From NCBI GenBank assembly GCA_965226525.1, contig OZ245361.1, positions 545,064-609,063 of the forward strand: DNA of 64,000 bases, written 5' to 3'. This DNA comes from Spiroplasma sp. (GTDB lineage Bacteria > Bacillota_I > Bacilli_A > Mycoplasmatales > MT37). Below, one piece after another: positions 1-24,758 of the stretch. Numbering within the stretch: position 1 is the stretch's first letter; each line of letters opens with the position of its first letter. Both the position numbers and the translations under genes were made by a program. Below the pieces are notes generated by a model. It was not told where the DNA came from. It worked only from the letters and a program-made list of their open reading frames with translations, and searched no databases.

Positions 1-150
1 CTCAATCAGGCAGAAGCAGAAAAGAATCAGCAAGCAAAAGAAAAACAACAACGTCAAGATTTAACCATTGGTTTAGCAACTGGTGGAGGTGTGTTAGTTG
101 CTGCTGGTCTGGGTGGTTTTCTCTACTGGTTTTTTAAAATTAGAAAATAA
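1..150 (+). CDS. 3' end of an array paralog (copy 0, cut by the window edge)
   Basis: In frame from nt 1: LNQAEAEKNQQAKEKQQRQDLTIGLATGGGVLVAAGLGGFLYWFFKIRK then TAA. This is the same stalk+TM+basic tail as the complete copies. Confidence 0.85.
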   Translation, partial: LNQAEAEKNQQAKEKQQRQDLTIGLATGGGVLVAAGLGGFLYWFFKIRK

Positions 151-300
151 AGAGTTTTTTGACTATCAATCTTTATTTTCCTTATTTTTTGAAAAAACAC
201 TTGCTTATAGATTTTTTCTAAAGTATCTTTTGTGACTATTCAAAAGTGGACAAAATCAGTTGTTTCTTTCCTGGTTTTTTGCTTCTTTTTCACCAATTAC

Positions 301-327
301 TTGACAAAAAAAAAAAAAAAGTAAAAT
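301..327 (+). promoter_or_regulatory. Putative promoter with homopolymeric spacer, TTGAC-A15-G-TAAAAT (copy 1)
   Basis: TTGACA at 301-306, A run at 306-320, TAAAAT at 322-327, ATG at 337 (9-nt gap). Confidence 0.55.
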
Positions 328-336
328 GAAGGCACA

Positions 337-1923
337 ATGTTGAAAAAAGTCTTTGCTGTTTTTTCAGTTTTTATCTTCTTTGCCTTCTCAGGTTTGTTTG
401 TTTTTGCGAGTCCATCTTCTCCAGTTGTTTTCTCATCAGGAGGCTCTGCCTCTACTAATTTAGCAGCAGAAAAAATAGCTAAAATTGATCAGCTTTGATC
501 AGGAATCAAAAATGAAATAAAGAAGCCAGTATATTATTTTCTAACTGGAATCCCAATTAAAATTCCTGGTCGAGTTGGTAAATTTTATGACTTAGGACCT
601 TTATACAAAGCAGCGCAAAATGAACTTGCTACCTCTGGTTCTAGTCTGACAACTGAAGGTGCCAGAGAAAAACTTTTAGAACTGGTTAATGCTGGTTTAG
701 ATTCTGCAACAGTTAATTCTGCGCTTTCTTATGAAAAAGGATTTGGTTTTTATAATGATTCAGCAAACATTTGAAATTCTCTTTCCATTCAAGAATTAGT
801 AAAACCCAAATATACCCACTTAGGTAGAACCCAAATTACAATTGAAAGTAATGGAGAAATATTACATGAGGGTAGTCTAGAACCCTTGTTCAATGCTGCT
901 AGAAATCAAGGAGGCAAATTCTGATATGAACTGCCAACTGCTGCTAAAGACCTGCTTATTAGTTTGATTGATGTTCAGGTTAGTGGGGCGCATCTCAATT
1001 CTGCTTTAGCAAAAACAGCACTAGATCTTCTTTGATCAGAAATCAAATCTGAACTAAAGACAAAGTATGCTTATCTATCCAAAAATCTAATCCTAATCAA
1101 TGGTAATAACTATAACCTTGAACCCTTGTTTACTGCTGCCAAAAATGATGCCCAGTATGAAAAGAAAGGTTCTGAACTTTCTGTCCAGGCAAAAGACAAA
1201 CTCCAAGAATTAGTTAATGCTGTTGTTATTCCTCAAAAGCTTAAAGACGCTTTAGATGTTAAAAACAATGAAAAGTTAGATGCTTTCTGATCAGAAATTA
1301 AATCTGAACTGAAAAAACCAAACTATGCCTACTTAGTCAAAACTCCAATCCTAGTCAATGGTAATAACTACAACCTTGAACCCTTGTTTGTTGCTGTCAA
1401 AAATGAGTATCGTGTTTTAGGTTCACAACTCTCTGATCCAGCAAAAAATAAGTTACAGAGTTTAGTTAGTGCTGATGTTCAACACCCAATTTTTAAAAGC
1501 AGTTTAACAACAGCAAACACTCAAAACAACCAAAAATTAGATGACCTTTGAACCCAACTAAAAAAGATTCTTAACCAACCAGAATTTAGCAAATGAAAAG
1601 ATACTTCAATCAAGATTAAAAACAAAAGTTATGATCTTAAACTTTTGTTTGTTGCTGCCAAGGAAAATGCAGATGTTAAAGATTCTGCCTTGCCCTTGGA
1701 TGCCAAACTCCAACTTCAAGAATTACTCAATGATCAAGTTACTTCCAAAATGGTTGAAAACCAACTGCTTGCTCTCAACCAGGCAGAAGCGGAAAATAAT
1801 AAGCAAGCAAAAGAAAAACAACAACGTCAAGATTTAACCATTGGTTTAGCAACTGGCGGCAGTGTTTTAGTTGCTGCTGGTCTGAGTGGTTTTCTCTACT
1901 GGTTTTTTAAAATTAGAAAATAA
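337..1923 (+). CDS. Array surface-protein paralog, copy 1 (528 aa, code 4)
   Basis: Hand-translated without TAA/TAG. The N-terminus is MLKKVFAVFSVFIFFAFSGLFVFASPSS. ORF 1645..1923 is in frame (offset 1308). The C-terminus is ...TIGLATGGSVLVAAGLSGFLYWFFKIRK. Confidence 0.88.
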
Positions 1924-2071
1924 AGTTTTTAGGTACCTGTTTTGGTTGTTTAGTTTTTAAATTTTTTTATGGATCTCCTTTTCAAATAGTTTTAAACACT
2001 TAAGAAAATAAATAAATTTAATATTTTTTTAGTTTTTGAAAAAAAACATTTTGGTTTTTTGCCTGAGTTAC

Positions 2072-21412: not shown

Positions 21413-21421
21413 GAAGGCACA

Positions 21422-22984
21422 ATGTTGAAAAAAGTCTTTGCTGTTTTTCCAGTTTTTATCTTCTTTGCCTTCTCAGGTTTGTTTGTTTTTGCCAGTCCAT
21501 CTTCTCCAGTTGTTTTCTCATCAGGAGGTTCTGCCTCTACTAATTTAGCAGCAGAAAAAATAGGTAAGATTAATCAGCTTTGATCAGAAATCAAAGATGA
21601 AATAAAGAAGCCAGAAAATTATTTTCTAACTAAAATCCCAGTTAAAATTCCTATTCAAACTGGTAAACTTTATGACTTAGAACCTTTATACAAAGCAGCA
21701 CAAACCGAACTTGCTACCTCTGGTTCTAGTCTGACAACTGAAGGTGCCAGAGAAAAACTTTTAGAACTGGTTGATGCTGGTGTAGATTCTGCAAAAGTTG
21801 ATTCTATGTTTTTTTATGAAGAAACAGTTGGTTTTTATAGTACTGTAGAAAGTCTTTGAAGTGGTCTTTTCATTCAAGAATTACTAAAACCCAAATATGC
21901 TCACTTAATCAGAGTTCCAATTATAATTGAAGATAGTAGTTATGACTTTGAACTACTTTATAATTCTGCTAGAAATCATGGAGAAAGAAAAGCATGATAT
22001 GAACTGCCAACCTCTGCTAAAGACCTGCTTATTGGGTTGGCTGATCATGTTGGAAGTGTGGATCTCAGACCTACTTTAGCAAAAACAGCACTAGATCTTC
22101 TTTGATCAGAAATCAAATCTGAACTAAAGACAAAATATGCTTATCTATCCAAAGCCCCTATTGGAATTGATGAAACAGACTATGACCTGGAACCCTTGTT
22201 TGCTGCTGCTAAAGATGATACTCAATATGCAAAGGAAGGTTCTGAACTTCCTGCCCAGGCAAAAGACAAACTCCAAGAGTTAGTTAATGATGTTGTTATT
22301 CCTCAAAAGTTTAAAGACGCTTTAGATGTTAAAAACAATGAAAAGTTAGATGCTTTCTGATCAGAAATTAAATCTGAACTGAAGAAACCAGATTATGCCT
22401 ACTTAGTCAAAACTCCAATCCTAGTCAAAGGTAATAACTACAATCTTGAACCCTTATTTGTTGCTGTCAAAAATGAGTATGGTGTTTTAGGTTCACAACT
22501 CTCTGATTCAGCAAAAAATAAGTTACAGAGTTTAGTTAGTGCTGATGTTCAACACCAAATTTTCAAAACTAGTTTAGTGACAATAAACAATCAAAAATTA
22601 GACAACCTTTGAAACCAACTAAAAAAGGTTTTTAACCAACCAGAATTTAGCAAATGAAAAGATACTTCAATCAAAATTAAAAACAAAAGTTATGATCTTA
22701 AACTTTTATTTGCTGCTGCCAAGGAAAAAGGAGATGTTAAAGGTTCTGCCTCTTCCTTGGATGTCAAACTCCAACTCCAAGAGTTAGTCAATGATCAGGT
22801 TACTTTCAAAATGATTGAAAACCAACTGCTTGCTCTCAATCAGGCAGAAGCAGAAAAGAATCAGCAAGCAAAAGAAAAACAACAACGTCAAGATTTAACC
22901 ATTGGTTTAGCAACTGGCGGAGGTGTGTTAGCTGCTGCTGGTTTGAGTGGTTTTCTCTACTGGTTTTTTAAAATTAGAAAATAA
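21422..22984 (+). CDS. Array surface-protein paralog, copy 13 (520 aa)
   Basis: ORF 22757..22984 is in frame (offset 1335). Modules 2-3 are divergent. Confidence 0.83.
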
Positions 22985-23135
22985 AGAGTTTTTTTGACTA
23001 TCAATCTTTATTTTCCTTATTTTTTTAAAAAAAACACTTGCTTATAGATTTTTTCTAAAGCATTTTTTGACTATTCAAAAGTGGACAAAATCAGTTGTTT
23101 CTTTCCTGATTTTTTGCTTCTTTTTCACCAATTAC

Positions 23136-23162
23136 TTGACAAAAAAAAAAAAAAAGTAAAAT
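23136..23162 (+). promoter_or_regulatory. Putative promoter TTGAC-A15-G-TAAAAT (copy 14)
   Basis: A run at 23141-23155. ATG at 23172. Confidence 0.55.
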
Positions 23163-23171
23163 GAAGGCACA

Positions 23172-24758
23172 ATGTTGAAAAAAGTCCTTGCTGTTTTTCC
23201 AATTTTTATTCTCTTTACCTTCTCAGGTTTGTTTGTTTTTGCCAGTTCATCTTCTCCAGTTTTTTTCTCATCAGGAGACTCTGCCCCTACTAATTTAGCA
23301 GCAGAAAAAATAGTTAAAATTGATCAGCTTTGATCAGGAATTAAAGATGAAATAAAGGATTCAAGATATTATTCTCTAATTAAAGTCCCAATTAAAATTC
23401 CTGTTTGAGGTGGCAAACTTTATGACTTAGGACCTTTATACAAAGCAGCACAAAATGAAAATGAACTTGCTGCCTCTGGTTCTAGTCTGACAACTGAAGG
23501 TGCCAGAGAAAAACTTTTAGAACTGGTTAATGCTGGTTTAGATTCTGCAGAAGTTACTTCTGTGCTTTTTCTTGAAGAAACATTTGGTTTTTCTAAAACT
23601 TTAGTAAGGCTTTGAAATTCTTTTTTTGTTCAAGAATTACTAAAACCCAAATATGCTCACTTAGCTAAAACCCAAATTACAATTAGAAGTAATGAAGAAA
23701 TATTATCTAAGGTTAGTCTAGAACCCTTGTTCAATGCTGCTAGAAATCAAGGAGAAAAAAAATTATGACATCAACTGCCGACCGCTGCTAAAGACCTACT
23801 TATTATGTTGGTTGATGCTGGCATTAAAGAGGAGCATCTTAATCCTGCTTTAGCAAAAACAGCACTAGATCTTCTTTGATCAGAAATCAAATCTGAACTA
23901 AAGACAAAATATGCTTATCTATCCAAAGCCCCTATTGGAATTGATGAAACAAACTATGACCTGGAACCCTTGTTTACTGCTGCCAAAAACGATGTCCAGT
24001 ATGAAAAGGAAGGTTCTGAACTTTCTGTCCAGGCAAAAGACAAACTCCAAGAGTTAGTTAATGATGTTGTTATTCCTCAAAAGTTTAAAGATGCTTTAGA
24101 TGTTAAAAACAATGAAAAGTTAGATGCTTTCTGATCAAAAATTAAATCTGAAATGAAAAAACCAGATTATGCCTACTTAGTCAAAACTCCAATCCTAGTC
24201 AATGGTAATAACTACAATCTTGAACCCTTATTTGTTGCTGTTAAAAATGAGTATGGTGTTTTAGGTTCGCAACTCTCTGATTCAGCAAAAAATAAGTTAC
24301 AGAGTTTAGTTAGTGCTGATGTTGAACACCAACTTTTTAAAACTAGTTTAGTGACAATAAACAATCAAAAATTAGACAACCTTTGAACCCAACTAAAAAA
24401 GATTCTTAACCAACCAGAATTTAGCAAATGAAAAGATACTTCAATCAAGATTAAAAACAAAAGTTATGATCTTAAACTTTTGTTTGTTGCCGCCAAGGAA
24501 AAGGCAGATGTTAAAGGTTCTGCTTTGCCCTTAGATGCCAAACTCAAACTCCAAGAGTTGCTCAATGATCAGGTTACTTCCAAAATGGTTGAAAACCAAC
24601 TGCTTGCTCTCAATCAGGCAGAAGCAGAAAAGAATAAGCAAGCAAAAGAAAAACAACAAAGTCAAGATTTAACCATTGGTTTAGCAACTGGTGGCAGTGT
24701 GTTAGTTGTTGCTGGTCTGAGTGGTTTTCTCTACTGGTTTTTTAAAATCAGAAAGTAA
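23172..24758 (+). CDS. Array surface-protein paralog, copy 14 (528 aa; last in the array)
   Basis: ORFs 24153.. and 24480..24758 are in frame. The array ends here, followed by a tRNA and tig. Confidence 0.85.

Follow-up and report, generated by a model that had tools for sequence, protein, structure and literature searches.

A tandem array of membrane-anchored, multi-module proteins with a poly(A) tract in every promoter: a candidate contingency locus in a Spiroplasma

The first 24.7 kb of a 64,000-nucleotide (nt) stretch of Spiroplasma sp. DNA (contig OZ245361.1, positions 545,064–609,063; here called the window, and numbered from its first letter) is taken up by a tandem array of related genes, each complete copy of which is preceded by a long run of A between its −35 and −10 promoter elements. 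We propose that this array is a contingency locus, phase-variable as well as antigen-variable, of the kind represented by Vlp of Mycoplasma hyorhinis, and that it encodes a new family of non-lipoprotein, type I membrane proteins. Its variation would arise from slippage in the promoter spacers, from gene conversion and from diversifying selection. We assign this reading a probability of roughly 0.6.

Organization of the array

How is the array laid out? The source genome is that of a Mollicute (~0.6 Mb, ~32% GC, UGA = Trp), in which family members were traced to a 609-kb contig. Read with translation table 4, window positions 1–24758 yield 14 complete genes of one family, all co-oriented, the first open reading frame (ORF) at 337–1923 and the last at 23172–24758. 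Each contains 6–9 in-frame TGA codons; read with table 11, the first 25 kb gives merely fragments of ~90 amino acids (aa). These calls agree exactly with a first-pass annotation, made from the sequence alone, that had described 14 complete genes and one partial gene with nothing between them. No other credible gene lies between the members in 1–24758, and no remnants of the family were found in the three longer intergenic spacers. Since positions 1–150 hold the 3′ end of a further copy, the array extends upstream past the start of the window and numbers at least 15 tandem copies in total. The tail of this partial gene is identical to that of P0020, a 603-aa member with six modules.

All 14 complete copies are intact ORFs. 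Thirteen encode proteins of 520–528 aa and the remaining one, G03, a protein of 370 aa. The tandem unit is ~1.76 kb and the paralogues are 76–92% identical across the array. The intergenic regions fall into three types, A (~180 nt), B (~183 nt) and C (473 nt), to which a 315-nt B/A chimera must be added. Type C (3688–4160) and the chimera (7027–7341) are the long spacers ahead of G03 and G05; type C is 89–99.8% conserved in other strains, always ahead of particular gene variants. The features of the array and its downstream boundary are as follows.

1–150 (+): 3′ end of a further family gene (last 49 codons and stop); frame-0 translation ends ...LTIGLATGGGVLVAAGLGGFLYWFFKIRK*
301–327 (+): G01 promoter cassette TTGACA-(A)-G-TAAAAT, spacer 15
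337–1923 (+): G01, 528 aa, five modules; AlphaFold model, pLDDT 84.7
2072–2097 (+): G02 promoter cassette, spacer 14, type B intergenic region
2107–3687 (+): G02, 526 aa, five modules
4125–4151 (+): G03 promoter cassette, spacer 15, type C 473-nt intergenic region
4161–5273 (+): G03, 370 aa, internal-deletion variant, three modules, without the invariant block
5419–5445 (+): G04 promoter cassette, spacer 15
5455–7026 (+): G04, 523 aa
7305–7332 (+): G05 promoter cassette, spacer 16, the sole array copy within the canonical 16–18 nt; predicted ON
7342–8919 (+): G05, 525 aa
9069–9094 (+): G06 promoter cassette, spacer 14
9104–10678 (+): G06, 524 aa, mosaic
10829–10854 (+): G07 promoter cassette, spacer 14
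10864–12435 (+): G07, 523 aa
12586–12611 (+): G08 promoter cassette, spacer 14
12621–14192 (+): G08, 523 aa
14336–14362 (+): G09 promoter cassette, spacer 15
14372–15943 (+): G09, 523 aa
16094–16120 (+): G10 promoter cassette, spacer 15
16130–17713 (+): G10, 527 aa
17862–17888 (+): G11 promoter cassette, spacer 15, type B intergenic region
17898–19481 (+): G11, 527 aa, the single Cys-bearing copy (residue 19, non-lipobox)
19628–19654 (+): G12 promoter cassette, spacer 15
19664–21241 (+): G12, 525 aa
21386–21412 (+): G13 promoter cassette, spacer 15
21422–22984 (+): G13, 520 aa
23136–23162 (+): G14 promoter cassette, spacer 15
23172–24758 (+): G14, 528 aa, final gene of the array
24830–24905 (+): tRNA-Arg(TCT), downstream boundary of the array
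24931–26268: tig, directly after tRNA-Arg(TCT)

On the minus strand, ORFs of 86–138 aa recur within the family genes (2355–2771, 7785–8048, 9547–9807 and 14764–15075, with further ones at 16378–16770, 18668–19078, 20107–20367 and 23420–23824). These are probably by-products of repeated sequence and paralogy rather than genes.

Might the array be an artefact of assembly, in which a repeat was expanded, collapsed or misjoined? Tandem repeats of this length and identity are hard to assemble, and the contigs of a related sample do break in or near such arrays. Yet every ORF is intact, and the copies are distinct from one another (8–24% divergent), each with a mosaic pattern of its own. Moreover, several independently assembled contigs from a single ENA metagenome sample, one of them circular and 581 kb long, carry equivalent but non-identical arrays. 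Their boundaries are the same, with a HIT protein and a 952-aa protein upstream and tig, hisS and aspS downstream (these three follow the array in L084 and L087), while their gene content differs between co-occurring haplotypes; a 370-aa variant like G03 is also present in L001 and L082. The first-pass annotation had itself raised the doubt about assembly. We find an artefact scarcely credible.

Some haplotypes also carry truncated or fragmentary family genes (34–336 aa, and a 73-aa C-terminal remnant), located in L087, L088 and L090 (e.g. L087 1882–2892, L088 2817, L090 4769–5467) and at L083 9597–9818; from these we conclude that decay and turnover in the arrays are ongoing. A T15 tract, which is not the cassette reversed, lies in the long spacer just 5′ of the first array gene in L082 (9658–9672) and L001 (2707–2721).

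A poly(A) tract in every promoter

Ahead of each of the 14 genes stands the cassette TTGACA-(A)n-G-TAAAAT, followed by 9 nt and then the ATG. So short a distance from the −10 element implies that the mRNA would be leaderless or nearly so. The spacer measures 15 nt in nine copies, 14 nt in four and 16 nt in one, G05. All fourteen runs of 14 or more A in the 64 kb sit exactly between a perfect TTGACA and a TAAAAT; the longest such run elsewhere in the window is A10, and the number of cassettes expected by chance, from shuffles, is 0.00. The promoter core, that is the last ~50–65 nt, is the sole part common to intergenic types that are otherwise unrelated. The intergenic RNA fold is weakly structured (z = −2.1).

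If spacer length governs expression, which copy would be ON? A sigma-70 scan at 16–18 nt spacing detected, of the array promoters, that of G05 alone, with 11/12 consensus matches, the best site in 1–12700. Because its 16-nt spacer is the only one within the canonical range, G05 is the predicted ON copy, alone in the array of this assembly.

To see the tract beyond a single array, 64 cassettes were gathered, those of the window together with others from eight loci of this species. The tract is pure in 59 of them, with a spacer of 13 nt once, 14 nt 15 times, 15 nt 40 times and 16 nt three times. Interrupted tracts of two different sequences, AAAAATAAAAAAGAGG (n = 1) and AAGAAAAAAAAAGAAG (n = 2), give a spacer of exactly 16 nt. 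These suggest ‘locked’ promoters; and since two different non-slippery sequences arrive at the same length, they point to 16 nt as the working spacer and to 14–15 nt as OFF or weak. The interrupted or otherwise variant cassettes lie at L083 9964–10000 and 12661–12694, L088 21022, L090 15951 and L001 15763; among them one has a spacer of 19 and another a −35 element changed to TTGAAA.

Do the tracts change more readily than the DNA around them? Near-identical flanks (≤2 mismatches in 253 nt) are shared by 11 pairs of units, and in 5 of the 11 the tract length differs. The flanks of G05 (16) and G06 (14) differ by one mismatch in ~250 nt, the G06 tract being 2 nt shorter; those of G10 (15) and the unit at L084:9966 (14) are identical; and those of G14 (15) and the last gene before tig in L087 (14), which occupies the equivalent position, differ by one mismatch in 253 nt. 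The other two pairs are between related loci. Since near-identical flanks accompany different tract lengths, we conclude that the tract changes far faster per site than its surroundings, unless long-read consensus has miscalled its length. The first-pass annotation had taken the promoter design as a sign of a contingency locus, and the A14–16 tract in each spacer, with lengths that differ between near-identical units, agrees with it.

Architecture and predicted topology of the proteins

The array proteins have in common a hydrophobic N-terminus, MLKKVFAVFPVFIFFAFSGLFVFASPSS. The signal peptide ends ...GLFVFASPSS and nowhere matches the lipobox [LVI][ASTVI][GAS]C, even though lgt is present in the window (54774–56000; PF01790, 101.8 bits), so that the earlier description of the proteins as non-lipoproteins stands. 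Its statement that the N-terminus lacks Cys needs one correction: a G→C change at residue 19 of G11, outside a lipobox context, supplies the sole Cys in signal peptide or mature part among the array proteins. Cleavage by signal peptidase is plausible between VFA and S.

The near-invariant block LGPLYKAAQxELATSGSSLTTEGAREKLLELVNAGLDSA, first described as shared by all members, is found in 13 of the 14 genes and is absent from G03. The repeated modules are borne out by a hidden Markov model (HMM), which counts three repeats of ~85 aa in G03 and five in every other complete protein of the array, the modules being 28–61% identical to one another. Short in-frame tandem repeats at the C-terminus were not found; the repeats are the ~85-aa folded modules, and size variants of 370–880 aa differ by whole modules.

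The C-terminus, LTIGLATGGxVLVAAGLxGFLYWFFKIRK, comprises a Gly-rich transmembrane (TM) helix and the basic tail KIRK. The charged linker that precedes it, the Q/K/E ‘stalk’ of the first description, extends over just ~20–25 residues. Kyte–Doolittle hydropathy exceeds 1.6 at residues 1–31 and 502–520, and the positive-inside rule is obeyed at both ends (MLKK... and ...KIRK). With a hydrophobic N-terminal signal present beside the C-terminal helix, these are predicted type I membrane proteins. They are not tail-anchored, as they had been labelled, since that term in its strict sense calls for one C-terminal TM segment and no N-terminal signal.

How are the modules folded? The full-length AlphaFold model, built from a 48-sequence family alignment, has a mean predicted local distance difference test score (pLDDT) of 84.7, with most of the ectodomain above 90. 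It contains five repeats, each consisting of a long helix, a short helix, a beta-hairpin and two helices, and a final long helix that spans the linker and the TM segment. A single module modelled alone scores 83.9.

Between species, the ectodomain is far less well conserved than the Gly-rich helix with its basic tail, L[AT]IGL[AG]T.GG....AG.GGF.YWF.KIRK (e.g. window 1834–1920, G01 residues 500–528), whose pattern recalls that of a tripartite sorting signal or of a glycine-zipper oligomerisation motif. Beyond anchoring, it may act as a dedicated signal for sorting, processing or oligomerisation. The proteins do not qualify, however, as bearers of a recognised C-terminal sorting signal (LPXTG/sortase, PEP-CTERM, GlyGly-CTERM and the like): no NCBIfam model reached its cut-off, the best, GVDTG_CTERM (E 0.022), scoring 15.1 bits where 29 are required, and the array proteins contain no LPXTG motif.

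Mosaicism and selection among the paralogues

The paralogues are recombination mosaics. In scans for the nearest paralogue, 100% identity switches segment by segment from one paralogue to another. Thus G06 equals G05 over codon columns 1–120, G12 over ~121–260 and G07 from 281 to the end, while G12, in turn, is identical to G06 within the variable region, and most of its 3′ half equals that of G13. A GENECONV-style permutation test was significant for 24 of the 78 pairs after Bonferroni correction, and an incompatibility statistic of the pairwise homoplasy index (PHI) type was 0.482 against 0.572 ± 0.007 in permutations, 13 standard deviations below. Both tests uphold the mosaicism claimed at the outset.

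Where does the variation fall? The ratio of nonsynonymous to synonymous changes (dN/dS) is 1.38 in module 1 and 1.25 in module 2, the only regions above 1, with a peak of ~3 at residues 116–160; it is 0.49 in the signal peptide and N-terminal residues, 0.33–0.42 in modules 3–5 and 0.31 in the linker and anchor. These are simple pairwise Nei–Gojobori values on recombining paralogues and hence rough, which tells against leaning heavily on diversifying selection. The invariant block adjoins the hypervariable stretch. Its low values of both pN (0.024) and pS (0.029) suggest homogenisation or a role as recombination anchor.

Might the array be mainly an archive, in which expression is confined to a single copy or a handful while the others act chiefly as donors, as in pilE/pilS, vlsE or MgPar, with the homopolymer of minor importance? 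The pronounced mosaicism, in which paralogues share long stretches at 100% identity, would suit an archive, and the invariant block, with its low pS beside a hypervariable region, could be its recombination anchor. Silent cassettes, however, normally lack promoter, start codon, signal peptide and anchor, whereas every copy here has the full set, and no unique expression site is recognisable. Gene conversion also fits a contingency locus and is part of that reading. We think an archive improbable.

A second kind of tract in a sister species

Is poly(A) the only hypermutable tract associated with this family? A sister species (L085; ENA ERZ25067557 ctg35188, a circular 675-kb contig) likewise has its members of the family in co-oriented arrays, and they end in the same conserved anchor, ...LAIGLGTAGGVVALAGAGGFAYWFLKIRKS. 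The poly(A) promoter is absent from the family genes of this species. A tract of G10–11 follows directly upon the signal-peptide codons, MKKIFLTLSLLLFALPILSLVNFHR-GGG-DKLL.... The tracts are as follows.

L085 2640–2649, 3054–3063, 4923–4933, 8016–8026 and 15846–15856: G10–G11 tracts of the sister species, one near a 3′ end

As assembled, three of the genes read out of frame; gain or loss of 1–2 G restores ORFs of 617–655 aa that run from signal peptide to anchor. At the G tract near the 3′ end of one gene, a change restores that gene's anchor. In-frame versions of these genes exist in the protein database. Judged by their sequence, the G tracts would constitute a translational phase-variation design in the same family. 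Two independent hypermutable-tract designs in one family are hard to explain except by selection for switchable expression. Control may have been swapped in evolution between the promoter poly(A) switch and the coding poly(G) frameshift switch of the sister.

Does the tract act as a switch?

How, then, might the locus work? On the sequence and the model, each protein would be exported by its Cys-free signal peptide, with VFA/S the likely cleavage site, and held in the membrane by the Gly-rich C-terminal helix with its cytoplasmic KIRK tail, displaying a rod of five helix/beta-hairpin/helix modules. Every gene would be its own transcription unit. By analogy with M. hyorhinis vlp, slipped-strand mispairing in the A14–16 run would alter the −35/−10 spacing, a spacer of 16 nt (perhaps 17) being ON and one of 14–15 nt OFF or weak, and we infer from that analogy that the genes of the array would switch. 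Slippage in each gene's own tract would make the switching independent from gene to gene, and reversible. Segmental gene conversion or unequal crossing-over between the tandem copies would renew the repertoire, with diversifying selection acting on the two membrane-distal modules while the proximal modules and the anchor are conserved.

Several considerations weigh against this scheme. Tract lengths were read from consensus assemblies, while phase variation is defined by heterogeneity within a population, and differences of 1–2 nt in runs of A14–16 could in part be errors of long-read consensus. The modal spacer of 15 nt is more tightly conserved (40 of the 59 pure tracts) than expected for a freely slipping tract, and 15 nt could therefore be a functional state itself. 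Two interrupted cassettes, with spacers of 19 and 14, fall outside the spacer-16 pattern. Canonical −35/−10 pairs are not enriched at housekeeping genes (56 found against 66 ± 8 in shuffles), so that dependence on −35 spacing in the source organism is an assumption. No intrinsic terminators were found between the array genes, and read-through transcription could consequently blur the ON and OFF states. Surface exposure, cleavage of the signal peptide and any interaction with a host are predictions.

Some of these points would suit a multicopy surface-protein family that does not switch at all. Most or all copies would then be co-expressed, as a coat or as adhesins of different specificities; the A-run would be a fixed promoter element (curved or UP-like DNA) duplicated along with the genes, and diversity would come from duplication and gene conversion alone. 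The narrow distribution of tract lengths fits such a family, as do the intact ORFs of all 14 copies, and spacer length may count for little where, as in this genome, −35 elements are on the whole weak; nor was length variation within a population seen in the consensus assemblies. But a fixed element leaves unexplained why every copy has an A14–16 run exactly in its spacer when the rest of the 64 kb has none, why tracts differ in length between near-identical flanks, and why the stabilised, interrupted variants have a spacer of 16 rather than the modal 15. It also sits badly with the sister species, whose members of the family carry a classical frameshift tract and are, in several cases, out of frame. 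We regard a family without switching as unlikely, and retain the contingency locus as the preferred reading.

A family without named relatives

Pfam and NCBIfam searches gave no match above cut-off, and sequence searches of PDB, including profile searches, nothing significant (best E 0.16–0.74). Structure searches with Foldseek covered PDB and BFVD. The full-length model had no significant neighbour (best E 0.15), a null that is expected of an elongated, multi-module protein; for the single module the best values were E 2.5 (PDB) and 1.6 (BFVD), none significant. A word-indexed search of 5.8 billion proteins returned 139 matches, none of them named, and a profile search of 1.84 billion representatives returned 78 relatives, none of those checked being named. 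The suggestion that the family may match none yet described has therefore withstood the Pfam, NCBIfam, PDB sequence and Foldseek searches.

Relatives were traced to four sources: the source genome, the ENA sample (ERZ25073755) with its co-occurring strains, the sister species, and contigs of the Logan collection, one of which was traced to a run. Neither the promoter cassette nor relatives were found in JGI metagenomes, and G01 had no match among the GTDB species representatives in an 8-mer scan. A scan with AtpD gave matches of ~58–64% to a mixture of bacteria, for the most part Bacillota; tblastn probably puts table-4 genomes at a disadvantage.

How widely is the module itself used? Giant proteins of 2,400–3,050 aa contain up to 21 copies of it, several of them with the same C-terminal anchor. 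They include P0202 (2,980 aa, encoded in the source genome outside the window) and the relatives P0131, P0133, P0135, P0136 and P0137. In P0131, the near-identical cluster representative of P0202, the profile matched in 21 stretches. Pfam searches of distant and giant members gave no module match; P0133 scored LPD3 and LHH, with no single stretch passing. Because the giants carry up to 21 copies, the module is a general building block in the lineage. That it represents a new fold, defining a new superfamily of Mollicute surface proteins with one to more than 20 modules, is a tentative idea, which we hold to be doubtful.

Three further proteins of the window deserve mention. A 297-aa protein (45982–46875, minus strand) has an N-terminal TM segment and a C-terminal TM segment that ends in a basic tail. 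BLASTP matches it weakly (E 2e-7) to P0169, a distant member from the sister species, and it may be a remote relative of the family with one or two modules. A 1,619-aa protein (57415–62274), located after secA-uvrB-uvrA-lgt-Na/Ca exchanger, has a signal-like N-terminus and a C-terminal TM segment. Its position is occupied in Logan contig L086 by a 1,088-aa family member, and no similarity was detectable between the two. Neither the 1,619-aa protein nor a 651-aa ORF of the window had any detectable relation to the family. Beyond them lies a tmRNA gene at 62834–63208 (Rfam RF00023, 69.7 bits), on which ARAGORN made no call.

Comparison with known systems

Is a switch of this design without precedent? 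It is not. The design is already known from M. hyorhinis Vlp, and such systems are well known in Mollicutes; what is new is the family of proteins, with its fold and membrane topology, and its association with a switch of this type. Vlp consists of tandem, related surface-protein genes, each a transcription unit of its own that is switched ON or OFF as the poly(A) tract of its promoter gains or loses residues, which gives combinatorial expression (PMC10502178). The present genes are likewise in tandem, each with its own promoter (14 cassettes, 9 nt before the ATG) and with a homopolymeric A tract between −35 and −10 in 14 of 14 genes (64 cassettes across strains). The vlp tract lies between the same two elements, 17 A being the ON state, and a vlp cluster holds 3–8 genes. 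The array, with at least 15, is larger, and its tracts of 14–16 nt are mostly below the presumed Vlp ON length. The products differ too: Vlp proteins are lipoproteins with a lipobox Cys and short C-terminal repeats that vary in size, whereas those of the array have a TM anchor, five folded modules and no lipobox. In the Pfam and NCBIfam searches the array proteins showed no relationship to any model.

In Vmm of Mycoplasma mycoides a dinucleotide repeat in the promoter spacer turns transcription ON and OFF (PMC10502178). The likeness is that a simple-sequence repeat alters the length of the spacer; the differences are the dinucleotide unit, the essentially single gene and the lipoprotein product.

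Hemotropic mycoplasmas such as M. haemofelis have large, mostly non-lipoprotein families of hypothetical proteins with signal peptides or TM helices; these paralogous families, experimentally uncharacterised, have repeats in their intergenic regions and have been proposed as drivers of antigenic and phase variation (PMC3196708). Neither a defined promoter switch nor an architecture of modules is known to have been described in their case. The array family, by comparison, has 78 representatives in 1.84 billion, those traced lying on a few contigs, and no link between the two could be made.

A parallel in circumstance is Candidatus Mycoplasma girerdii, an uncultivated organism of ~0.6 Mb with at least 28 copies of a BspA-like surface protein, in which metagenomic reads showed that simple-sequence repeats switch expression, the consensus often being OFF (PMC5476646). 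There, however, the proteins belong to another family, built of leucine-rich repeats, the dinucleotide repeats are in the coding sequence and the genes do not form one tandem array. In view of these variable proteins, Ca. M. girerdii was rejected as a candidate for the source organism.

Neisseria opa and Mycoplasma hominis vaa are switched by frameshifts in a coding tract. The sister species resembles them, in that the tract after the signal-peptide codons sets the frame of the mature protein. In the species of the window, by contrast, the tract is in the promoter rather than the coding sequence; the protein families are unrelated.

An N-terminal signal combined with a C-terminal anchor, in non-lipoproteins, is known from phytoplasma Amp, Spiroplasma ScARPs and M. 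genitalium MgpB/MgpC, whose exposed part is under positive selection or varies through recombination. The array family is alike in overall topology and in its signs of positive selection or recombination; the mechanisms of variation and the fold of the module differ. The Pfam and NCBIfam searches revealed no similarity to these proteins, no dedicated comparison having been made.

Significance

Phase-variable multigene families are the main means by which wall-less bacteria persist in their hosts. To our knowledge, nearly all of the well-studied ones are lipoproteins of cultured pathogens. Here a Vlp-style promoter-spacer design would serve an unrelated, membrane-spanning protein, built of a module without known relatives, in an uncultured lineage represented solely by assemblies, and the range of potential variable antigens in Mollicutes would be widened accordingly. 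The 64 near-identical promoters, which differ almost solely in spacer length and include ‘locked’ 16-nt variants, allow the spacing rule to be tested on compact natural material. With the sister species included, one protein family comes under two different simple-sequence switches; if the swap between poly(A) and poly(G) is true, it offers a natural system for studying the gain and exchange of contingency switches. The proteins of the array would themselves be candidate antigens or adhesins for an organism as yet uncultivable.

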